A stretch of DNA of 63,588 nucleotides from a virus (Duplodnaviria; Caudoviricetes), in the IMG/VR virus record IMGVR_UViG_3300045996_002625, positions 1-63,588 of that record. One strand, given 5' to 3'. The notes below the pieces were generated by a model. That model saw only the letters and a list, made by a program, of their open reading frames with translations. It ran no database searches and was not told the origin of the DNA. This document shows positions 3,775 through 53,928 of this stretch, in pieces. Every line of letters begins with the position of its first letter. Position 1 is the first letter of the stretch. The position numbers and the translations under genes are program-made.

Positions 3775-4101
3775 ATGAGCAGAGCCAAAAAAACCGCAGC
3801 CGCAGAACTCGCCGAGGCCGTCGCCGACAAAATCGCCGAGCAGACCCGCCAGCTTGTCATCAAGAACTGGCCCGACATCGACAAGACGATGGACGCCGAC
3901 GAGGGGAAGGAGATCAAGCTCTCCTTCAGCACCACCCTCACCCACCGCGCCGCCGAGGAAGGCACCGTGGCGAGCAAGGATAGCCGGATCCTCACGACGC
4001 TGGCCTTCAGCCTCGGCAAGCAGAGCGACAAGACGGAGAGCCCGTTTCCCGATCCCGAGCAGATGGAACTCAGCGATGCGTCGAAGGGAGGTGGCGAGTA
4101 A
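3775..4101 (+). CDS. Hypothetical protein
   Basis: 108-aa ORF in operon. Confidence 0.7.
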   Translation: MSRAKKTAAAELAEAVADKIAEQTRQLVIKNWPDIDKTMDADEGKEIKLSFSTTLTHRAAEEGTVASKDSRILTTLAFSLGKQSDKTESPFPDPEQMELSDASKGGGE

Positions 4102-4543: not shown

Positions 4544-5262
4544 GCATCCAAGCCATCATTCTCGATGTCGAAACCCACGCGAAAGACAACCCAGAGGTTG
4601 TTGAAACCGCATGGATGGAAACCGGAATGAGGGAAAGCGCCTACCTCCCGAACGGCAACCTCCGATACCCGCCCACAATCCAGATGTGGTGCCCTTCTCA
4701 GCCGATCACGCTTGGCGCGATGGCCGTCCACCACATCACCGACGAAGACGTCGCCGACTGCCCTCCGAGCAGCTTCTTTGAACTCCCGGCCTGCGAATTC
4801 CTGATCGGCCACAACATCGACTACGACGCCGGCGCTGCGAGAATCATGGAGAACGACCCCAAGCGCATCGACACCTGCGCCCTCGCGCGCGCCGTATGGC
4901 CCGACATCGACACCTACAGCCAAGGAGCGCTGATCTACCATCTCGACCGCGAAAACGCCAAGCAGCGCCTCAAGGGAGCGCACGGTGCAGGGTGCGACAT
5001 CCTGCTCTGCAAGACGATCCTCGACGCCGAGATCGAGCACCTGCAGCCCACCTCGTGGCAGCACCTCTGGGAGATGAGCGAAGAAGCTCGGATCCCGAAA
5101 ACGATGTACTGGGGCAAGCACGCCGGCGAGAAGATCGAAGACCTCCCAGCCGACTATAAGCACTGGTTGCTCACCAAGTGTAACAACCCGCCGATCGACA
5201 AATACCTCCGCCGCGCCCTCACCGGAGAAGATCGGCAGCGCACGATGTTCTGCCCCAAATGA
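4540..5262 (+). CDS. DEDDh 3'-5' exonuclease (ExoX-like)
   Basis: ILDVET, GHNIDYD, AHGAGCD motifs; C-terminal WGKHAGEKIEDLPADY domain. Confidence 0.88.
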   Translation: MSIQAIILDVETHAKDNPEVVETAWMETGMRESAYLPNGNLRYPPTIQMWCPSQPITLGAMAVHHITDEDVADCPPSSFFELPACEFLIGHNIDYDAGAARIMENDPKRIDTCALARAVWPDIDTYSQGALIYHLDRENAKQRLKGAHGAGCDILLCKTILDAEIEHLQPTSWQHLWEMSEEARIPKTMYWGKHAGEKIEDLPADYKHWLLTKCNNPPIDKYLRRALTGEDRQRTMFCPK

Positions 5263-13121: not shown

Positions 13122-13634
13122 ATGGCCAAAAAACGAAAGCCTCCCAAAAAAAAGGGACCGCCCAAACCCCTCGGCCGCAAACCAGACATCTCAGAAGCCC
13201 AAATCTCCAACCTCGTCACACTCATCTCCAACTGCACCTCCTACAAAACAGCCTGCGAAGCCTCAGGCCTCGGAGAAGCCACTTTCCACAGATGGATGGC
13301 CGCAGCACTCGAAGAGAACGCCAAGCCCTGCTACGTGGAATTCCGAGAGCGCATTACGCAGGCGCGCGGCATTGCCAAGGCTTCGATGATCAAACACGTG
13401 GTGAGCAAAGCCCCCGACGACTGGCGGGCGGCCACGTGGCTCCTTGAGCGCACCGCGCACGATGAATACGGGGACAAGAGCAAGATCAACGTCGAGCACC
13501 AAGGAGCCATCCAGCACGACCACACGCACAAGCAGATCGTGGTCGTACTCCCCCCAGCGATCGCGGCGCCGAAGCCGATCCGGAGGATTGAAGCGACCAG
13601 TGAACCAGTGAAACCAGAGAACCCAGCATCATGA
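13122..13634 (+). CDS. Putative terminase small subunit
   Basis: HTH (KTACEASGLGEATFHRW) plus DWRAATWLLER..EYG motif. Confidence 0.7.
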   Translation: MAKKRKPPKKKGPPKPLGRKPDISEAQISNLVTLISNCTSYKTACEASGLGEATFHRWMAAALEENAKPCYVEFRERITQARGIAKASMIKHVVSKAPDDWRAATWLLERTAHDEYGDKSKINVEHQGAIQHDHTHKQIVVVLPPAIAAPKPIRRIEATSEPVKPENPAS

Positions 13635-21451: not shown

Positions 21452-21883
21452 ATGAGCACGCCCACCGATCTCTTCCCAGGCTTCACCACCCCGCCGACGC
21501 ATCCATCGCGCGACCTGCGCCCCGCAGAGCGCAAGGAGCCACCAATGCGCACGCCGGCCGCGAAAGAGTCGATCCCATTCACCCGCGAGTATTACACGAT
21601 GAGATGCCGCGCCCACTGGGACAGAGAACCACTGCGCGACGCGATCGGTAACTGGAGCCACTTCCGCGAGCTTCACGAAGCCCTCAGCGAAGCCATGCGC
21701 CGATTCAAGAGCGAAGGCAGAGGAAGCCTCAAGCCCTTCCTCTGGGATCTCCAGAAGCAAATAAGCCCCAACCAGAACACCCTGCACCCGCTCCTCGACT
21801 TCTGCGACCACTACCAGCGAATATTCCTCCGCCGCGGCCTCGTCATTTACTGCGAGATGATCCTCGCCCAGCTTGAGACATGA
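21452..21883 (+). CDS. Hypothetical protein
   Basis: Coupled to terL. Confidence 0.6.
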   Translation: MSTPTDLFPGFTTPPTHPSRDLRPAERKEPPMRTPAAKESIPFTREYYTMRCRAHWDREPLRDAIGNWSHFRELHEALSEAMRRFKSEGRGSLKPFLWDLQKQISPNQNTLHPLLDFCDHYQRIFLRRGLVIYCEMILAQLET

Positions 21884-23547
21884 CCACCGTTGCCGAACCT
21901 CCCCCAGAGCACGCCGCAGCCAACTGGTGGAACCCAGGCGCGTCGATGCAGGAATTTCACGACTCCGACGCCTTCATTCGATTCCTCATCGGCGGCCGGG
22001 GAACCGGGAAGACCGCAGCGAGCGGCATGGAGGCAATCCGCCACGGCTGGCACATCGCCGGCGCCAAGGCCATCTTCCTTCGCAAGACCGAGAGCAGCCA
22101 GAGCGACACCACGATCGAGACGATCGGGAAGCTCTTCGACCAAATGGGCGCGCTCTACCAAGACACCGGCGACAGCCTCTTCAAAAGCTGGAACAACGGC
22201 CGCACCATCCGGATCCCGAGCCGCAAAGCCGTGGAGGCCTTCAATGAAGCCCTGCCATCGTGGGAAAGCCGCGCCGACCGCGTGAACTGGATCGAGCGCG
22301 AGGGCGACAAACTCTGCAGCTACATCGAATTCCGAGGCCTGCCCCACGCCGTTTCCAAGGAGACGAAGCTGCGCGGATTCGAGTGCTCCATGCTGGTCAT
22401 GATCGAAGCCGACCAGATGACCGTCGAAGATTTCCAGATGGCTATCCCATGCGTTGGACGATGGAAGGGATCAGACCCGGAAACCCGCGATCAGCACGGC
22501 TACATCATCGACAGCTTCATCATCGTCGAAACCAACCCGCCGAGCGACCGCCACTGGATCGCGAAGACCGAGGAGGAGACAGCCAAGGGGATGAACCCAG
22601 GCTACCGCTTCTGGCACATCCGAACCGAGGAAAACGCCCACAACCTCCCCCCGAATTACGTCCAGAACCTCAAGACCGCGTACCGCAACAACAAGGCGAT
22701 GTATAAACGCATGGTGATGGGAGAATACGCCGACGCCTACGACGGGAACCCCGTCTACTACGCCTTTTCGCCGGACGAGCACGTCGGAGAAGACCTTGAG
22801 TGGACCACCGGTGCCTTCCTCATCCGCGGTTGGGACTTCGGCACCTGCAACGCCGTCGTATGGTCGGCATACTGGCGATTCGCCGGCGTCGAATATTGGT
22901 GGGACTTGGCCGAGCAATATCTCGAGGGAAGCGACACCGAGCGCCAAGTGCGCGCCGCCATCCAGCGCACCGAGAACGAATTCGATTTCTGGAACGACCG
23001 TACCGTCTGCGCCGGCGTGCTCGACTATTGCGACCCGGCCGGCAACAACAGCTCCTACACGCGCCAGATCGACGTCAATGGCAAGCGCACCGAGGAAAGC
23101 GCGATCGCCATCCTCAACACCTACGGCATCTTCCCAGGCTTCACCACGACCGCACGCGGCCTGCAGGAGACGCTGGCGACCGTCAACCGATTGCTCGAGA
23201 CCCGGGACGGCCCGCTGATCGATCGAATCACCAAGCTCCCCGACGGCAAGATTGAGAAAGTTCAGATCCCCACCGGCAACCCCGTCTACCGCATCGACAA
23301 GAAGAATTGCCCGATCCTCTACCGCGGCCTCTGCGGCGCGTACCGCTACCCTAACGTAGGAGAGGCAGGCTACGGCAACAACGAACCGATGAAGGGGGCC
23401 GTCGCCGAGAACATCGACCACATCCAAGACGCCGCGCGTTACTCCAAAATTAACGTCCTGCGCCTCATGAAATCCGATGCCGAGAAGATCAAGGAGTCGA
23501 CCCTCAAGCAGTACCAGAGGAACCCGAATCCGAAGAGGCAGGACTGA
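21880..23547 (+). CDS. terL: Terminase large subunit
   Basis: GGRGTGKT Walker A; LRGFE..VMIEAD; TNPP; GWDFG and DHIQDAARY nuclease motifs. Confidence 0.92.
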   Translation: MTTVAEPPPEHAAANWWNPGASMQEFHDSDAFIRFLIGGRGTGKTAASGMEAIRHGWHIAGAKAIFLRKTESSQSDTTIETIGKLFDQMGALYQDTGDSLFKSWNNGRTIRIPSRKAVEAFNEALPSWESRADRVNWIEREGDKLCSYIEFRGLPHAVSKETKLRGFECSMLVMIEADQMTVEDFQMAIPCVGRWKGSDPETRDQHGYIIDSFIIVETNPPSDRHWIAKTEEETAKGMNPGYRFWHIRTEENAHNLPPNYVQNLKTAYRNNKAMYKRMVMGEYADAYDGNPVYYAFSPDEHVGEDLEWTTGAFLIRGWDFGTCNAVVWSAYWRFAGVEYWWDLAEQYLEGSDTERQVRAAIQRTENEFDFWNDRTVCAGVLDYCDPAGNNSSYTRQIDVNGKRTEESAIAILNTYGIFPGFTTTARGLQETLATVNRLLETRDGPLIDRITKLPDGKIEKVQIPTGNPVYRIDKKNCPILYRGLCGAYRYPNVGEAGYGNNEPMKGAVAENIDHIQDAARYSKINVLRLMKSDAEKIKESTLKQYQRNPNPKRQD

Positions 23548-23720: not shown

Positions 23721-24284
23721 ATGATCAAACCCTCTATTCTCATTGCCGTCGCGGCCTGCTTGGCTGCGCCCCGTTTCATGTCTGCCCACAAGGACGCCTA
23801 CACCGGCAGTTCCTCGAGCAGCAGCCCGAGCCCCGAAGGCCGCAGTCTCGCCGAAGACCCCAGCGATCCCAACGCCGTGCAAGGCGGACAGAAAAAGGAA
23901 GCCGAGCAGATGACCGAGGAAAAGCAGGAGAAGATCTCCGGCCCGACCGTGGAACCCGAGCAGAGCCCCGGCACGCCGGCGTGGGACATCGAGAGCCAGC
24001 GCGAAACGGAACTTTTCGAGTCCGGAGACGTCGTCTTCGTCCGCGAAGGATCCTCGACTCACCTCACCGCCTACCCGAAGCACGAGGTGGCCACGCGATA
24101 CACCGGCATCACCTCCCGCACCTCGGGATGGGAGAAGGACCGCGAAGTCACCGTCCTCGAGCTCGACAATGGCGACACGGTCACCAAACGCGGCGTCGAA
24201 GTCATCGTCGCCCCGGCGAAGGGTGGCGCGGCCAAGACCGACGGGCCCAGCCTCAACGCTCACGCGCCTAACGAGTCCCACTAA
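23721..24284 (+). CDS. Hypothetical protein with hydrophobic N-terminus
   Basis: MIKPSILIAVAACLAA followed by an acidic low-complexity region. Confidence 0.6.
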   Translation: MIKPSILIAVAACLAAPRFMSAHKDAYTGSSSSSSPSPEGRSLAEDPSDPNAVQGGQKKEAEQMTEEKQEKISGPTVEPEQSPGTPAWDIESQRETELFESGDVVFVREGSSTHLTAYPKHEVATRYTGITSRTSGWEKDREVTVLELDNGDTVTKRGVEVIVAPAKGGAAKTDGPSLNAHAPNESH

Positions 24285-24293
24285 TCCGGCGCC

Positions 24294-24614
24294 ATGCTGC
24301 CATCCACGACAGCGCCGGCGATGCCCATGGCGACGGCTTCGAAGCTCCCGCTGAACATCGCCGAGCTTGCTCCCAACCTCCGAGTTCCAGGCGTCACCCC
24401 GCCACCGCGGCAGGCGGCCGGCATGATGGCGGGCCCGGGAGGAACGCCACTCGGAACATTCCCGAGCCCCACAGCCCCCGCGGAGCCTCCGTACACCGTC
24501 GACATGCAGGCCGACGGATCAGCCATCTTCAAAAGCAGGACGGAGCCGCCTGTCGTCATTGGAGTCGCAAAAGCGCCGAAGCTCCCTCCGGCGCTGCAAC
24601 CACCGAAAATGTAA
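24294..24614 (+). CDS. Pro-rich hypothetical protein
   Basis: 106-aa ORF. Confidence 0.6.
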   Translation: MLPSTTAPAMPMATASKLPLNIAELAPNLRVPGVTPPPRQAAGMMAGPGGTPLGTFPSPTAPAEPPYTVDMQADGSAIFKSRTEPPVVIGVAKAPKLPPALQPPKM

Positions 24615-24617
24615 TCG

Positions 24618-25496
24618 ATGAATGGCCAGCCGTTTCACTACGTAGCCCTGATAGGGCAGACCCCCGACGGCGGCAACGCCATGGTCGGTGCCAGCGCGCC
24701 GGAATCAGCGAGCCAAACGCTGACCTTCAGCGACCAGCCCGAGAACAACGAGACAGTCACGATCGGCACGAAGACCTACACGTTCAAGACGACGATCACG
24801 AACGCGACGGCAAACCAAGTACTGCGCGGAGCGGACACCGAAGCGTCGATCGCAAATCTTGCTGCAGCCATCAACCGCGGAGCAGGAGACGGCGTCAAAT
24901 ACAGCAGCGCCACCATCGCGCACACCCAGGTCACCGCCACAAGCGACGCCACGACGCTCACCGTCACGGCGATCAACCCGGGACAGCAGGCGAACAGCAT
25001 CGCCGTATCTGACACGGTCGCCGACGCCACGTGGGGCTCCTCGACGCTTGACGGCGGAACCAATGCAGTCCTAAACACATCCATCGCCGCAGGCACAGCC
25101 AACATCGGAGACGTGGACGTGGCGAGCACGGTCAACCCAATTCCGCCCGCTGTTTCAACCTACAGCCCATCGCTATTCCAGAACCTCGGAGCGGACGCCA
25201 CGCTGAACGTCAAGGCTTCCGCCGGGAATGTTTTCTCGCTGACCTGCCACAACGAAAATGAGGCAGCCAGATACGTCCAACTTCACAACACCGCCACCGT
25301 CCCGACTTCAGGGGTGACTGTGCCGGTTTTTACATTCCTCGTCCCGGCAGGCTCACAGACCATCATCGGGACGGATTTCTTCACCAACGCGGGGTGTCAT
25401 TTTGCGACAGGCATCGCCTTCGCCTTCTCCACCACCAAAGACGTCTACACCGCAGCCACCGCCAGCGAACAATCAACCTGGGTCCAATATAAGTGA
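24618..25496 (+). CDS. Putative virion structural protein
   Basis: Thr/Ala-rich, beta-type composition. Confidence 0.6.
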   Translation: MNGQPFHYVALIGQTPDGGNAMVGASAPESASQTLTFSDQPENNETVTIGTKTYTFKTTITNATANQVLRGADTEASIANLAAAINRGAGDGVKYSSATIAHTQVTATSDATTLTVTAINPGQQANSIAVSDTVADATWGSSTLDGGTNAVLNTSIAAGTANIGDVDVASTVNPIPPAVSTYSPSLFQNLGADATLNVKASAGNVFSLTCHNENEAARYVQLHNTATVPTSGVTVPVFTFLVPAGSQTIIGTDFFTNAGCHFATGIAFAFSTTKDVYTAATASEQSTWVQYK

Positions 25497-26284
25497 GCAC
25501 CCTCATCCCCTCCCTCCCTGGCGCAAGCGCTACTCCAGTCTATGCCGGGGTCTCATTGACGGAGCCGGTCGATCACACAGCGCTGCCCTCGGTGCAGGCT
25601 GCGCTCAACACGCTGCAACTCGTTCGCCGCCTCGCTCGAATCCAAACCTTTGACTTCTATCCCGGCTTACATGTCGGGGGCTATGTCGCTGCGGGAACGG
25701 GCGGGATCTCAGGAGGGACCACGGGGGATGCATACGTGCGTTTGCAAACAGGAGCCACCTCCGCCAGCACCGAGGCGATCTATTATCAGGCGCAACAACA
25801 GTTCGCCCAGGACGGGGTGACGGGGAACGGAAGCATCGACTATTCGCAGCAAATTTCAGTGACCTGGCGATTCAGCTGCTTCGCGGAACTAACGACCAAC
25901 GCGTTCTTCCGCGCTTCCATCGGAAAAAACAACGGAGCCGGGGTGCTCAACGCCTCGGGATTCGGCTTCGAGGTGACCTACAAATCCAGCGGAATTGGCA
26001 GCCTGAAGCTCCAAACCCACGATGGATCACTCCACACCTCCGCAGAGTTGTCGGAGATCACCACCTCGGCGGACGGCCCGGTGCATGAAGTCACTATTGA
26101 AACGGACGGGACTGGGAACGCGTATCTCTACCTCAACGGTGTCTATAAAGGGACAGCCGCGACGGCACCAGCGACCAACGCCGCGGCCACCCGATACCTC
26201 GTCGCTGAAGTGGGGAACGGAGCGGATTCCAGCAACAACATGGTCTACCTCACGATGACACGCGGCATCGTAAAAAAAAATTAA
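25493..26284 (+). CDS. Putative fibre/receptor-binding protein (short form)
   Basis: Gly/Thr-rich, lectin-like; ends GTA AAA AAA AAT TAA. Confidence 0.6.
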   Translation: MSTLIPSLPGASATPVYAGVSLTEPVDHTALPSVQAALNTLQLVRRLARIQTFDFYPGLHVGGYVAAGTGGISGGTTGDAYVRLQTGATSASTEAIYYQAQQQFAQDGVTGNGSIDYSQQISVTWRFSCFAELTTNAFFRASIGKNNGAGVLNASGFGFEVTYKSSGIGSLKLQTHDGSLHTSAELSEITTSADGPVHEVTIETDGTGNAYLYLNGVYKGTAATAPATNAAATRYLVAEVGNGADSSNNMVYLTMTRGIVKKN

Positions 26285-26865
26285 CTGAACCGCTCTTTTC
26301 CACCTCATATCCTTCACCCTCTCTAGCCGTTGGCGATTCAATTACCTCCGCACAAGATGGAACCTCTTGGGTCGATATCGCTGAAAACACCGCACCAGCT
26401 CAGAACTCCGTCTGGTTCAATCTCGGAGTCAATGGGCGCACCATCTCGGACATCGAGGCCGTCTACGCCGCAGAGGTCTATCCGCATTCGCCCTACGTCA
26501 CCGATATCCCGGCGGTCCTTTACCTTAACATTGGAAACAACGACCTCGGGCAAGGACTCACGCCAACCCAAATCGCGACGGCGACCGACGCCTATGTTCT
26601 CCGCGCCCAATCGGACGGGTTTTACGTCATCCTCACCACAATCGGGGCGAGTTCCTTTCAGCCTCCAGGTTCGGATTGGGATAACCACCGCCTACTGGTC
26701 AATGCCGCCCGCCTCTTAAACACCCTTCCAAATGCTGTCTACGATTTCGCCGCTTGGTTCGATCCCGACACTATGTCGGTGGACGGGACGCACCCTGACC
26801 TTGCAGCTGAAACGCGCTACGGGACGGAAATTGTGGCGTTGGCTGCGTCAACACTTGGCTGGTGA
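26272..26865 (+). CDS. SGNH/GDSL hydrolase domain; no start codon, -1 frame extension of the 25493 gene
   Basis: Manual translation gives AVGDSIT, NLGVNG, IGNND, DGTHP; no ATG/GTG/TTG between the stop at 26206 and the GDS motif. Confidence 0.85.
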   Translation, partial: KKKLTEPLFSTSYPSPSLAVGDSITSAQDGTSWVDIAENTAPAQNSVWFNLGVNGRTISDIEAVYAAEVYPHSPYVTDIPAVLYLNIGNNDLGQGLTPTQIATATDAYVLRAQSDGFYVILTTIGASSFQPPGSDWDNHRLLVNAARLLNTLPNAVYDFAAWFDPDTMSVDGTHPDLAAETRYGTEIVALAASTLGW

Positions 26866-26891
26866 ATCAACCTACCACTGCCGCGAATTGA

Positions 26892-27023
26892 ACTCATCGT
26901 CCGTCGGGCCCCACCGACCTGACCTACTTCGTCAGCCTCGGAGACAGTCATTTCACGACAGCGGGCAATCAACTCATCGCGGCGGACTTCGAGGCCGCCA
27001 CTCGCGCGAGTTTGGGATGGTGA
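26892..27023 (+). pseudogene. Orphan second SGNH-like C-terminus
   Basis: DLTYFVSLGDSHFTTAGNQLIAADFEAATRASLGW* parallels DTMSVDGTHPDLAAETRYGTEIVALAASTLGW*. Confidence 0.5.
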
Positions 27024-27089
27024 CTTTATGAGCGACGCCGACCTGCTCGACAAATCCCGCTGACCGATTCTACACGGACCACCTCATGT

Positions 27090-27443
27090 ATGCCGGAATA
27101 CCTGATCACGGCGCTGCTCGGAGTAGTTTCAGCACCGGCACCGGCACCACCGATCTCGCTAACGCAGGGACTCGTCGTCTACGGCCCGCTTGGACTTTGG
27201 GTCATCTGGTTTATCATCCGCGACATCAACGACCGTAAGGATAGAAAGGCCGATCGGGATGACCAAGAGCGAAGACACAAAGAGAATCTCGACGCTCAAC
27301 GCAAGGTCGAGCAGGCGCTGCGAACTAACACGAATTCGCAAATGGTCACCTGCGCCGCTTTGAAGCATTTGGACGTCGCCCTCGGCGACGTCGTCACACA
27401 AGTCAACGCCATGAACAAAGATGAGAATCCTGATCGTCGATGA
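27090..27443 (+). CDS. Holin-like membrane protein (TM plus coiled coil)
   Basis: YGPLGLWVIWFII followed by a charged helical tail. Confidence 0.6.
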   Translation: MPEYLITALLGVVSAPAPAPPISLTQGLVVYGPLGLWVIWFIIRDINDRKDRKADRDDQERRHKENLDAQRKVEQALRTNTNSQMVTCAALKHLDVALGDVVTQVNAMNKDENPDRR

Positions 27444-27861
27444 TGACCCGCACATGGTCGAGGTGCTCGCTCATTTCCTTGAGCCGATCACCTCTAAGAT
27501 AGAGACGACATCGAGACTGCAGACCGCGATCGAGCTATCGACGACTCGAAAATTCAACGTGATCATCCTCGACCTTCTGCTTGAGGACAGCACCAAGGAA
27601 AAAACTCTCGACGCCATCAAGATATTCAAGAGCCACCAATCGGCAGTCGTGGTCGTGTCTGGAGTCCCAGAGCCAACGATCGAGCAGCAAGCCAAGCAGG
27701 CAGGCGCCGACGCCTTCGTCCCCAAGGATAACACCTTCGGAAAAAGCGCGCTCATCATAGCCACCAACGTGGCGCTGATGAACATGCCGAGAACCAGCCC
27801 AAAATCAGAATCATTCGAGTCGCACGTAGAAACACTTCGACGGATGGCGCAAAGTCTGTAA
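27421..27861 (+). CDS. Stand-alone response regulator receiver (CheY-like)
   Basis: ILIVDDD, IILDL (phospho-Asp), VVSG, AGADAFVPK. Confidence 0.92.
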   Translation: MRILIVDDDPHMVEVLAHFLEPITSKIETTSRLQTAIELSTTRKFNVIILDLLLEDSTKEKTLDAIKIFKSHQSAVVVVSGVPEPTIEQQAKQAGADAFVPKDNTFGKSALIIATNVALMNMPRTSPKSESFESHVETLRRMAQSL

Positions 27862-27874
27862 GTATCTCCACGCT

Positions 27875-28489
27875 ATGATCGACTGGATCGAGAAACACCT
27901 CACGAGTTGGCAAACATGGGTGGGGTTAATACTCGGATCGATCGCCAGCATGGCAGCGGTGTTCGTGGCGCTGAAAAACTGCCTGACCGTGCTCCTCGCC
28001 GCCTACCGCGGTGGAGTATTCGTGATCAAGATCGAGGAAGTCATCGGGAAGTTCAAAACCGAAGTGCTTGAGCGCCTCGACCGCATCGACGAAGGCCAGG
28101 CGAACCAGATTCAGATCCGGAGAGCGATCATGGAGGAGGACGAAGCAAAGGCATGGTTTGAAGCCGACCACCGCGGCCACCTCATCTGGGCAAACCGCCT
28201 GTACCGCGACCTCGTCGGAATGGAATCCGACCACGTGCGCGGCCGAGGATGGGAAGCCGGCATTGCCGCCGAAACGAGAGACGAAGTACTGCGCGACTGG
28301 ACGTCCGCATTTGACCATCAGCGAATGTTCGAGCGCGTGCTGATCTTCCAATGCATCCGCGACGGCACCAGGCAGCGCGTGCGACTCTCTGCGTGGCCAA
28401 TCCGAAGGGAGAGCGACGGGAAGATCTTGTCCTACACCGGCAACGCCACCATCCTCTCCCATGAACGAAGAAGCTCGAGCAAAGCGTAA
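27875..28489 (+). CDS. Membrane-anchored PAS-domain protein
   Basis: N-terminal TM; WFEADHRGHLIWANRLY..LVG....GRGW...D..W..PIRRESDGKILSYTG. Confidence 0.88.
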   Translation: MIDWIEKHLTSWQTWVGLILGSIASMAAVFVALKNCLTVLLAAYRGGVFVIKIEEVIGKFKTEVLERLDRIDEGQANQIQIRRAIMEEDEAKAWFEADHRGHLIWANRLYRDLVGMESDHVRGRGWEAGIAAETRDEVLRDWTSAFDHQRMFERVLIFQCIRDGTRQRVRLSAWPIRRESDGKILSYTGNATILSHERRSSSKA

Positions 28490-29376: not shown

Positions 29377-31659
29377 GTGGACTACGACCTCGAATCGCGA
29401 CTAAACAGCGACAGCACCCTCTTCGACTCGGCGCTTTACAACAAGCTCGCGCGAACCGCGAAGGACTACATCCAGAGCGGACTGAACGTCCTCGACTTCT
29501 ACATCCCCGACCTCGATACCTGCAACGACGTCGTCAACTGCTTCGGACCGATCGGAAAATCGTCCTTCGAGAAGGGAACCGACCGCAACAAGCCGCGGAA
29601 CTTCATCCACCCGATGACCGCGACGGAAATGTGGACCCTCGCCACCTTCATCAGCCAGATCCTCGCCGGCGGAGAAACCGTGCGCCGAGTGGAGCCCAGG
29701 AACCCCGAGGACGAAAGCAAGGCTGACCTGATCAACGAAGTCCTGCGCTGGAACGACAACCAGCAGGACACCTACGGGCAGATTTTCCACTGGTGCCGGG
29801 ACGCCGTCACCTGCAACCGCGGCGTGCTCTTCGACCACTGGGAAGACTTGGTCGCAGTGGAACTCGAGGCAGTCACCTACGAAATGCCGTGGATCGCCCC
29901 CGTCGACGAAAACGGCAAAAAGCAGATCGATCCCGAAACCGGAAAACCTTACCGGAAACCGCGGGACTACAAGGGCAAGGTCTGCACCCGATTCCGAAAG
30001 AAGCGGAAGACGATCGGAGGATTCGCGAAGATCAACCTGATCAGCCCCTACGATTTCATCTGCGACCCCGCCATGCCCCCAGGCCGGTTCCAAGAGGGCC
30101 GATTCGCCGGCCACCGCGTCCTCCTCCCGTGGGACGAACTTCGCCGCCGCAGCGAACTCCCCGTCGACCACTACCAGTATGTTCTGCCGGCCGTCGTCCA
30201 GAAGCTGAAGAACTCCAAGCAGAAGCGAGTGACCAGCATCGCCACTGGATCCACCACGAGCACCAGCCGTAGCTTTTTCGAGAGGCAACGCCGCAACCAG
30301 CCCGTCTCCACCACCACCGGATCCGACAAGATCACGAAGGAGGAGGGAGGCGTCGTCGAATGCTTCGTCCTCCAAGTCCGGATGCGCCCCACGGATTACA
30401 AGATATTCCCCGACGACACCGAAGAGGAAAAGATCGAGTTCCTGATCTCCGGCGACAGCGACCTGCTCTCGGTCAACATCACGACCAACAAGCACGACCA
30501 ATACCCCTACAGCGTCGGCGAAGCGCGCCCGAACGGGCACATGCAGTTTATGCCTTCGTGGGCCATGATCATCCGCGGCCCGCAATCCTTCGTCGATTAT
30601 ATGTGCACCAGGCGCCGCGAGAGCCTCGCGCGCACGAGCGGAAACATCTTTATCGGCAATCCGTCATGGGTGGACTTCAACGCTTTCACCGATCCGGACA
30701 AAGACGGCCTCTTCATCCCGATCACCCCCGAGGGCGCAGGAAAGCCGATCGACCAGATCATCAAGCAAGTGCCCGTCCAAGACACCACAGCGAACTTCTA
30801 CGACGAAGTCGACCGCTGGCAGAAGACCAGCGAGGAAGCCACCGGTGCCCACGCCCCGATGCAGGGATCCAAGGAAGAGGGCGACCCCACAGCGACCGAA
30901 TTCGTCGGCACCCAGCAAATGGCACAGGGACGCATCAGCACGATCGCCCGCCTTCTCTCCGCCGGCGGACTCGTCCCGCAAACGCAGCGCATCGTCTCCA
31001 ACCTGCAGCAGTTCCTGCCCGACGAGATGACCATCCGCATCAGCGGAGATCAGGATCAATTCGACCCCGACAAGCCCGTCCAGCACTTCCGCCGCTTCGC
31101 TCGTGACGCCTCCGAGTTCCAAGACGAAGACGGCAAACCCATGCCGAAGTTTGAAGACGACGGCGAGACGCCCGTCATCGATCCGGAAACCGGCGATTTC
31201 ATGATCGACGACCGCGGACTCCTCCCTGACATCCAAGGCGAATTCGACGTCGTCGCCCACGACGGAGCACTCCCAGGCACCGACGCCAAGAAGGTCGCCG
31301 CCCTCTCGCGAGCGGTGGAGAGCTACAGCAGCAACCCGGCGCTACAGGTCGCCTTCGACCGAACCAAGCCAGGCGCGATCGACCCGATCAAACTCTTCCA
31401 GAAGTTTCTCAAGGCGATCGACCTGCCGACCGAAGGGATCATCGTCACGCGCGAACAGGCACAGAAGAACCTGCTCGAAATGTCGCTCGCCGGAGGAGCC
31501 GGCATCCCGCTCGCCCCGCAGGAACCACCGACACCGGAAGCCCCGATGATTCCTGCCCCGCCGACGATTCCAGACCCGAACGCACCCATGCCGAGCGCAG
31601 CGGAGCTTCCCCCGACTCCGACAGCGGAGCCACCGGGCCCGAGCCCGATGATGGTGTAG
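29377..31659 (+). CDS. Portal protein (P22-like)
   Basis: 760 aa; VEPRNPEDESKA, ISPYDFICDP, TATE motifs; first gene of the head block. Confidence 0.8.
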   Translation: MDYDLESRLNSDSTLFDSALYNKLARTAKDYIQSGLNVLDFYIPDLDTCNDVVNCFGPIGKSSFEKGTDRNKPRNFIHPMTATEMWTLATFISQILAGGETVRRVEPRNPEDESKADLINEVLRWNDNQQDTYGQIFHWCRDAVTCNRGVLFDHWEDLVAVELEAVTYEMPWIAPVDENGKKQIDPETGKPYRKPRDYKGKVCTRFRKKRKTIGGFAKINLISPYDFICDPAMPPGRFQEGRFAGHRVLLPWDELRRRSELPVDHYQYVLPAVVQKLKNSKQKRVTSIATGSTTSTSRSFFERQRRNQPVSTTTGSDKITKEEGGVVECFVLQVRMRPTDYKIFPDDTEEEKIEFLISGDSDLLSVNITTNKHDQYPYSVGEARPNGHMQFMPSWAMIIRGPQSFVDYMCTRRRESLARTSGNIFIGNPSWVDFNAFTDPDKDGLFIPITPEGAGKPIDQIIKQVPVQDTTANFYDEVDRWQKTSEEATGAHAPMQGSKEEGDPTATEFVGTQQMAQGRISTIARLLSAGGLVPQTQRIVSNLQQFLPDEMTIRISGDQDQFDPDKPVQHFRRFARDASEFQDEDGKPMPKFEDDGETPVIDPETGDFMIDDRGLLPDIQGEFDVVAHDGALPGTDAKKVAALSRAVESYSSNPALQVAFDRTKPGAIDPIKLFQKFLKAIDLPTEGIIVTREQAQKNLLEMSLAGGAGIPLAPQEPPTPEAPMIPAPPTIPDPNAPMPSAAELPPTPTAEPPGPSPMMV

Positions 31660-53820: not shown

Positions 53821-53851
53821 CAGCCCGAAGGACGTCGGGAAAGATTCGCCT

Positions 53852-53925
53852 CGCAGCGTAGCCAAGTCAGGTAAGGCACGAGGCTCATAACCACGCCACC
53901 GCCGGTTCGAATCCGGCCGCTGCAA
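53852..53925 (+). tRNA. tRNA with CAT anticodon (Met/fMet/Ile2 unresolved)
   Basis: Acceptor CGCAGCG/CGCTGCA, D arm, CTCATAA loop, GCCGG-TTCGAAT-CCGGC T arm; TTGACA at 53818. Confidence 0.88.
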
Positions 53926-53928
53926 AAT

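Follow-up and report, generated by a model that had tools for sequence, protein, structure and literature searches.

A start-codon-less SGNH esterase domain behind a lectin-like phage gene, and an A9 run that may bring it into frame

The DNA considered here (the window) is IMG/VR virus record IMGVR_UViG_3300045996_002625 (Duplodnaviria; Caudoviricetes), a complete soil-phage genome that is 63,588 bp long, carries direct terminal repeats and has a G+C content of 60.7%. Within it, a lectin-like open reading frame (ORF) ends in a run of nine A's (A9) and a TAA stop, and the −1 frame across this junction encodes an SGNH esterase domain that lacks a start codon of its own. The junction is probably, though by no means certainly, a programmed recoding site for a lectin-esterase; slippage of RNA polymerase on the A9 run is favoured over −1 ribosomal frameshifting as the underlying process. 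Slippage itself, the ratio of the two resulting forms, the substrate of the enzyme and any location of the protein in the virion are treated as predictions throughout.

The 3′ end of the lectin-like ORF reads ATC GTA AAA AAA AAT TAA. The −1 frame is free of stops from 26209 to 26865, a span of 218 codons for which the probability by chance, calculated from base composition, is about 0.002. The hallmark of SGNH/GDSL hydrolases is a set of four conserved blocks, containing GDS (with the catalytic Ser), Gly, GxND and DxxH, respectively. All four are found in the −1 frame (Table 1). Read from TTA at 26281, the domain opens with a 14-residue linker rich in Pro, Ser and Thr, followed by block I. The Pfam family PF13472 is matched with 44.2 bits (curated cut-off 32.9 bits), with residues 16–173 aligned to profile positions 1–172 of 178. 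The original prediction, made from the DNA letters and a list of ORFs, had described this gene end and a −1 frame open to 26865 with all SGNH blocks, and is borne out by both the sequence and the Pfam match. The lipase/esterase families in PHROGs are matched weakly, as is the best structure in the PDB (TesA, 4jgg, residues 14–179; E 0.0065). Codon usage in this stretch singles out the SGNH frame, with a score of +0.13 per codon as compared to −0.43 and −0.54 for the other two frames; the lectin-like ORF itself scores +0.16 per codon. By these measures, the esterase domain looks intact and coding-like.

What the domain lacks is a place to begin. Between 26209 and the catalytic Ser codon at 26338, the −1 frame contains no ATG, GTG, TTG, CTG, ATT, ATC or ATA, and its first ATG, GTG or TTG is found at 26773. 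The absence of a start codon is the reason why the frame is missing from the default ORF list; in both respects, the initial description was accurate. No longer proteins containing the esterase were found, which is weak evidence given the type of search.

The A9 run at 26272–26280 is the longest homopolymer in the genome. It has the length of about nine bases that was adopted from the literature as the threshold for slippage (PMC5009743), and it precedes a complete coding domain that can be reached only after a one-base insertion. In addition, a heptamer of the type X_XXY_YYZ lies in register with the zero frame. Bacterial RNA polymerase slips efficiently on nine A's or T's, a property that is used by Thermus dnaX (PMC5009743), and the A_AAA_AAA motif class is proven in insertion sequence (IS) elements for −1 frameshifting (PMC4066793). 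The run is written in codons that are minority choices in this genome (GTA 8%, AAA 33%, AAT 21%, and TAA for 18 of 66 stops). The joint probability that V-K-K-N-stop is spelt GTA AAA AAA AAT TAA, taken as the product of genome codon frequencies, is approximately 5e-4. Since the site is built of rare codons, it is the placement and make-up of the run that are improbable, rather than an A9 run as such.

In the proposed mechanism, standard decoding would yield a 263-residue lectin-like protein that terminates at the TAA at 26282, and a minority of products, of approximately 457 residues, would carry the SGNH esterase as a C-terminal extension. One A added to the mRNA would place the esterase in frame, with the junction reading ...IVKKKLTEPLF...; as worked out from the sequence, two added A's or one fewer would lead to nearby stops, and three added A's would insert one more Lys. 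The same protein would result if the ribosome shifted by −1 on A_AAA_AAA, a route that may play a part. In this scheme, glycan recognition would fall to the lectin-like part, and the esterase would strip acyl groups, probably O-acetyl, from a host surface polysaccharide. The junction, which is short and conserved, also seems to serve as a joint at which startless esterase cassettes are swapped between phages.

As modelled, the 263-residue product is a glycan-binding-type module with a jelly-roll fold. Its match to Pfam PF13385 (19.6 bits) is below the curated cut-off of 27.6 bits. The AlphaFold2 model, built with 52 homologues, has a predicted local distance difference test score (pLDDT) of 83 and is a β-sandwich, all-β from residue 63 onwards. 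Foldseek relates this model with a probability of 1.00 to legume-lectin-like and Emp46/47 domains (TM-scores 0.47–0.50), and PL7 folds were also matched. Among viral models, ConA-like domains of uncultured tailed-phage proteins reach TM-scores of 0.52–0.58, and some of these structural neighbours are labelled Mtd-like, tail-repeat or minor tail. It is plausible that the lectin-like protein forms part of a virion fibre, as had been proposed at the outset. The fold and its resemblance to tail-fibre and Mtd-like domains agree with that proposal; the position of the gene, between the terminase and portal genes and beside genes for a response regulator and a PAS protein, does not.

The family to which this protein belongs was explored with HMMER; 1.8 billion representatives were searched exhaustively, which returned 104 homologues of the lectin-like ORF. 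In every one of them, the lectin-like domain is C-terminal; the longest remainder after the matched stretch comprises 76 residues (P0012), and none of the 104 has room for a fused extension of the size of the esterase (approximately 195 residues). The family ends where the ORF in the window ends, which places its stop at the natural end of the family. Uninterrupted lectin-esterase fusions, which would have spoken against the original prediction had all homologues been of this type, are absent from the whole set. The ending KKN occurs in six of the ten best matches (the window protein itself, P0003, P0006, P0007, P0008 and P0010), or in five of nine if the window protein is left out, and in none of the remaining 94. 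Pairwise identity among these six proteins, whose aligned rows were picked for their KKN ending, is 25–47%, with 17 invariant columns out of 327, and the terminal KKN is the sole run of two or more invariant columns. Searches for further loci were negative in metagenome contigs with the two family alignments as queries, and in genome contigs with P0003 as query; tblastn against GenBank phages gave no match, and seven phage contigs with an approximately 49%-identical terminase hold no homologue of either the lectin-like or the esterase ORF.

A close relative of the locus was found by comparing positions 24600–27500 with contigs from four soil runs (query-word shares 0.12, 0.06, 0.00 and 0.00; coverage was partial). 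An independent soil contig of 7187 bp, from another study, aligns with 25182–26286 with 72 substitutions and no gaps. It encodes a 263-residue lectin-like protein (P0108, in the 90% cluster of the window protein) that is 95% identical and ends in GIVKKN; the GTG start is replaced by ATG as a consequence of a G>A substitution at 25493. The 3′ end of the gene upstream, from 25182, is approximately 93% identical. Two bases past the lectin stop, similarity ceases at the left breakpoint of a cassette that is specific to the window genome, and homology resumes at 26905–27039. The contig is a mosaic, with at least 80% identity at 25182–26286 and 26905–27039 only, and is unlike the window before 25182 and after 27039. 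Since the flanks differ in this way, the lectin gene and its junction move together, as one module, among phages that are otherwise unlike.

In place of the window esterase, the related contig carries P0107, a protein of 145 residues that also belongs to PF13472 but shares only about 30% identity with the window esterase. P0107 aligns from residue 56 of the window esterase to a shared ...GW end. The distance from the junction codon to the P0107 stop is 597 nucleotides, or 199 codons, which puts P0107 into the −1 frame, with its called start 53 codons past the junction. Of the 178 positions of the PF13472 profile, the match covers only those from 61 onwards, which would place blocks I and II 5′ of the called start. 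Judged from these alignments, the relative has the same lectin gene and the same KKN-stop, with a different esterase (SGNH-b) in the same frame. A piece of this second type persists in the window: the remnant frame (26892–27020 as query) is 86% identical to the C-terminus of P0107, and codon scores across 26866–27085 are negative in all three frames. In the window lineage, esterase a has evidently taken the place of most of esterase b, leaving a stub at 26905–27023; that this stub is retained indicates a cassette swap at the junction.

A probable third case is provided by P0105, the sole near-length homologue of the window esterase (62% identical, with blocks II, III and V identical). It was called from a Met that aligns with residue 31 of the window esterase, past block I, and its PF13472 match starts at profile position 33. 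P0105 and the LKKN-ending lectin homologue P0010, which is approximately 30% identical to the window protein, each come from a Joint Genome Institute contig of 2383 bp. Hence, all three esterases considered here were either missed by gene callers or called without the catalytic Ser.

Table 1. Coordinates of the lectin-esterase locus and of other features in the window.
Feature	Position	Strand	Remarks
Lectin-like ORF (ConA/LamG-type jelly-roll)	25493..26284	+	Zero-frame product 263 amino acids; GTG start, end IVKKN-stop
Small hairpin, 6 bp with 8-nucleotide loop	26252..26271	+	Directly 5′ of the A run; minimum-free-energy and centroid folds
A9 run, proposed slippage/frameshift site	26272..26280	+	A_AAA_AAA (26272–26278) in register with zero-frame AAA AAA
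Zero-frame TAA stop	26282..26284	+	One base past the A run
SGNH/GDSL esterase domain, −1 frame	26281..26865	+	194 amino acids plus TGA, read from TTA at 26281
Block I, GDS	26332–26340		Catalytic Ser 26338–26340
Block II, NLGVNGRT	26419–26442		
Block III, NIGNND	26527–26544		
Block V, DGTHP	26782–26796		
Cassette specific to window genome, 618 nucleotides	26287..26904	+	Related contig has 472 unlike letters here
Remnant 3′ end of second SGNH type (SGNH-b), block V to stop	26905..27023	+	In 43-codon open frame 26892–27023
Upstream gene, 292 amino acids, function unassigned	24618..25496	+	TGA overlaps GTG start of lectin-like ORF (GTGA)
Terminase-sized ORF	21880–23547		
SU10-type portal gene	29377–31659		
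Polyvalent ORF, 3146 amino acids	42008–51448		ART-PolyVal ADP-ribosyltransferase domain (PF18760, E 1e-22)

In principle, the same junction could be explained in other ways. The esterase cassette might be a non-functional leftover that recombined behind the lectin gene, out of frame and startless, and is silent but has not yet decayed. The locus is visibly recombinogenic, as illustrated by the exchanged segment (618 versus 472 nucleotides) and by the dead stub at 26905–27023, and according to a view cited in PMC5009743, it is a matter of chance whether a mobile domain arrives in frame or out of frame. A decaying sequence is nonetheless hard to reconcile with a stop-free frame of 218 codons (chance about 0.002), with coding-like codons and with the retention of all catalytic blocks, the more so as the adjoining true remnant does score as non-coding. 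Moreover, the relative repeats the startless layout with an esterase of 30% identity, and a lectin gene of 30% identity is probably followed in the same manner by an esterase of 62% identity; three independent copies that are silent yet intact are improbable, and the leftover reading is accordingly regarded as unlikely. Phase variation at the DNA level is a further alternative, and is rated as distinctly unlikely. In this scenario, the A9 tract would gain or lose a base during phage replication, A10 subpopulations would be in frame, and assemblies would show the OFF state of the majority. A locus that switches often should be seen ON at least once, whereas all instances are OFF: both of the assemblies available at the DNA level have the same tract length, all six KKN-type proteins stop at the junction, and no fused ON form occurs among the 104 homologues. 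In favour of this reading, long homopolymers mutate by insertions and deletions at high rates (to which, or to slippage, the scarcity of AAAAAAA may be due; PMC4066793), an ON/OFF switch would fit the anatomy of the junction equally well and is compatible with slippage, and a rare ON fraction can hide behind contigs. Because every copy is interrupted and none of the 104 is fused, recoding is favoured, and the phase-variable switch that had been suggested alongside the fibre has lost ground.

The two remaining alternatives carry much less weight. Homopolymers are error-prone, and if the true tract were A10, the locus would encode an ordinary, uninterrupted lectin-esterase fusion. The independent assembly is equal in length (no gaps; a 263-residue protein with a KKN end), five distant homologues from other contigs have a KKN-stop, and none of the 104 is fused, which makes an assembly or sequencing error very improbable. 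On the distinction between A9 and A10 that had been recommended for checking in reads, the contigs point to A9, since independent assemblies agree on the run length. Finally, the esterase could be translated independently, either from a non-standard start or by termination-reinitiation past the TAA; the lectin stop does lie within the first codons of the esterase frame, as in genes that are translationally coupled through such an overlap. There is, however, no canonical or common near-cognate start from 26209 to the Ser codon; the sole near-cognate codon flagged, ACG at 26260, is located 5′ of the run, and the only motif resembling a Shine–Dalgarno (SD) sequence is found at 26219. This explanation is considered barely credible.

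The picture of programmed recoding is complicated by a number of observations that weigh against it. At the site itself, an A9 run as such is unremarkable, since at least one is present in 20 of 100 dinucleotide shuffles of the genome. No downstream stimulatory stem-loop or pseudoknot is apparent at 26281–26400 (z +0.63 relative to shuffles) or 26240–26350 (z +0.60), and the A run is not closely preceded by an SD-like motif, the nearest GGAG being at 26219, 53 nucleotides upstream. The lack of both elements weakens the ribosomal −1 variant in particular. The small hairpin directly 5′ of the run might, as a nascent-RNA hairpin, aid slippage, and recalls the one by which slippage is stimulated in an IS element of Roseiflexus (PMC5009743); the hairpin in the window is weak, and its region (26240–26350) folds no better than shuffles. 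The run length was judged from assembled contigs rather than raw reads, and none of the runs listed as holding this stretch is an RNA run. The AlphaFold2 model of the esterase was based on four sequences only and has a pLDDT of 36, so that catalytic geometry is not given by the model.

Further points concern the comparison between phages. Blocks III and V of SGNH-b are atypical, and the 53 codons 5′ of P0107, which lie outside the sequence seen, could hold a stop or a start. P0105 is probably located behind P0010, a placement based only on their common source and contig size. For the distant KKN-type homologues, A runs and −1-frame ORFs are deduced from protein ends, and KKN could be a feature of the protein itself; the internal motif SLHTSA is likewise common to five of 13 aligned sequences. 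No homologous loci were found in viral contigs with the esterase, the lectin-like ORF, P0006 or the two family alignments as queries. Taken together with the evidence above, the proposal that the esterase is reachable only by a shift at A9, and purposefully so, has gained from the absence of fusions among the 104 homologues, from the retention of the KKN-stop and from two more SGNH proteins called without their N-terminal blocks, with the distant cases standing at the protein level. As to the expected conservation of an A run plus stop in homologues, the close relative is colinear and has the KKN-stop, and the five distant homologues show KKN at the protein end, from which their A runs are surmised.

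Counter-examples within the lectin family come from a single metagenome-assembled genome (MAG) of the Chthoniobacterales. A search of genome contigs with the family alignment detected two loci in this MAG (L002 and L003), neither of which ends in KKN, and a search of the whole genome added a third, more distant copy (L011), also without KKN. The family occurs in one of 401 genomes of the MAG's phylum (that MAG only), and in two of 401 genomes of its order, where the second match is weak. In both L002 and L003, a separate gene of enzyme size, which has an ATG of its own, comes after the lectin-like gene; recoding is therefore not general to the lectin family. The module of a lectin-family gene and a 304-residue downstream gene is found on two different contigs (L002:2016–4684 and L003:119–1363). 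The two 304-residue proteins are nearly identical and have no match in Pfam or PHROGs, and the C-termini of the lectins are similar (GGIAN and GSISN). In L002, the lectin homologue is extended by a long N-terminus with repeats and is succeeded by the 304-residue gene, a chaperone-like gene and a tape-measure gene; it is placed two genes upstream of the tape-measure gene. An A9 run is also present in L002 (5047–5055), at the canonical tail-chaperone frameshift position just 5′ of the tape-measure gene, and this counts in favour of recoding on such runs. The ORFs here are 4690–5172, 5049–5252 and 5253 onward; the second, a −1-frame ORF of 67 codons, starts at the A_AAA_AAA run and extends to the base that precedes the opening of the tape-measure frame, which is the canonical G/GT layout. 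More generally in this family, lectin modules may thus tend to be coupled to an accessory gene downstream, and recoding would be one of the routes by which the two are linked.

Several features of the window form the setting of the locus. All long ORFs are carried by the + strand, and the base composition is skewed between strands (A 24.9% versus T 14.5%; C 33.0% versus G 27.6%). Stop-start overlaps of the type ATGA or GTGA are very frequent, and TGA accounts for 42 of 66 stops. The 292-residue gene upstream of the lectin-like ORF has no match in Pfam or PHROGs. Neither promoter-like sites nor + strand terminator-like sites were detected in 24000–28000, and hence none between the lectin and esterase ORFs. 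Just 3′ of the esterase locus, at 27421–28489, are genes for a response-regulator receiver protein (PF00072, E 8e-14) and a PAS protein (PF08448); the interval between terminase and portal is an unusual place for signalling genes in a phage. The 3146-residue polyvalent protein is probably an ejected virion protein. The sole tRNA gene in the window is that for tRNA-Met (CAT; 53851–53926), and there is no tRNA-Lys that would bear on decoding of the A run. The next-longest homopolymers are A8 at 13146–13153, eight codons into ORF 13122–13634, and A7 at 3787–3793, four codons into ORF 3775–4101 (start codon at 3775).

Among known systems, the anatomy of the junction is reminiscent of tssM1 from Citrobacter rodentium, in which the stop is preceded by 11 A's and two length variants are made, both of which are needed (PMC4256274). 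In each case, a long A run is situated directly before a stop, the C-terminal domain lies in another frame, and short and full-length forms are the (known or predicted) products. There are also clear differences. tssM1 is a bacterial secretion-system gene with 11 A's for which slippage has been demonstrated, whereas the window offers a phage gene with nine A's for which slippage is predicted; and the long form of tssM1 is the canonical protein of its family, whereas the norm among the lectin-like proteins is the short form, to which the extension would add an enzyme. The dnaX gene of Thermus thermophilus shares the nine-base run, and its mRNAs with extra A's give two products with a common N-terminus (PMC5009743), as would be expected here. 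The polarity is reversed: the long product of dnaX is made in the zero frame and slippage leads to the short one, whereas slippage at the present site would lead to the long one.

C-terminal extensions that arise by −1 or +1 frameshifting are established for phage proteins, including the capsid proteins of T3 and T7, and proteins with immunoglobulin (Ig)-like domains in Lactobacillus phage A2 and Listeria phages A118, A500 and PSA (PMC5009743). An idea cited in the same article is that recoding comes to the rescue of mobile domains once they have been inserted out of frame. Like these structural extensions, the lectin-esterase would be a minority form of a phage protein with an extra C-terminal domain from another frame. 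Those extensions are Ig-like or other binding domains, are attached to capsid or tail-tube proteins and are produced by ribosomal frameshifting; the present one would equip a lectin-like protein with a catalytic SGNH domain, and the site is better suited to polymerase slippage. Lambda-type gpG/gpGT, too, relies on a slippery heptamer close to the 3′ end of its gene, with a fixed low ratio of extended product (PMC5009743). That system differs from the window gene in being another gene with another function, the products of which are absent from virions.

With respect to the enzyme itself, SGNH esterase domains occur in phage receptor-binding proteins and in prophage carbohydrate esterases (PMC9569702, PMC13123978; PDB 6yp6). 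As in the receptor-binding SGNH proteins, the esterase would here be joined to a module for carbohydrate binding or of fibre type, in a protein directed at host polysaccharide. Going by titles and abstract openings, those proteins appear to be in-frame fusions or the products of separate genes, and no kinship to the window esterase beyond the Pfam family was found. Among the titles and abstract openings searched, none describes a phage protein to which recoding adds an esterase. Recoded C-terminal additions to phage proteins are known mainly for Ig-like domains and the tail chaperone, whereas the present case would concern a catalytic esterase on a glycan-binding protein. What would set it apart is the combination of a catalytic add-on to a lectin-like protein, a short form as the norm, and a junction that doubles as a point of cassette exchange.

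A broader proposal, which is more speculative and at present rather doubtful, is that a family of phage lectin-like proteins has, in the A9-TTAA joint, a portable element that is conserved. It would set a low, fixed ratio of enzyme-tipped to plain protein by slippage, and at the same time act as a crossover point for startless cassettes (of at least two SGNH types, and perhaps of others behind the remaining KKN-ending genes) between otherwise unrelated phages; in effect, receptor-modifying enzymes could be plugged into it as into a socket and made in sub-stoichiometric amounts. If programmed recoding at this junction is correct, phages would dose a receptor-modifying enzyme by slippage, and the slippery run would double as a joint for the exchange of modules. 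Gene callers would systematically truncate or miss such domains, and a lectin-like gene with a KKN-stop, followed by a startless domain, would be the pattern by which to search for hidden enzyme extensions in uncultivated phages.

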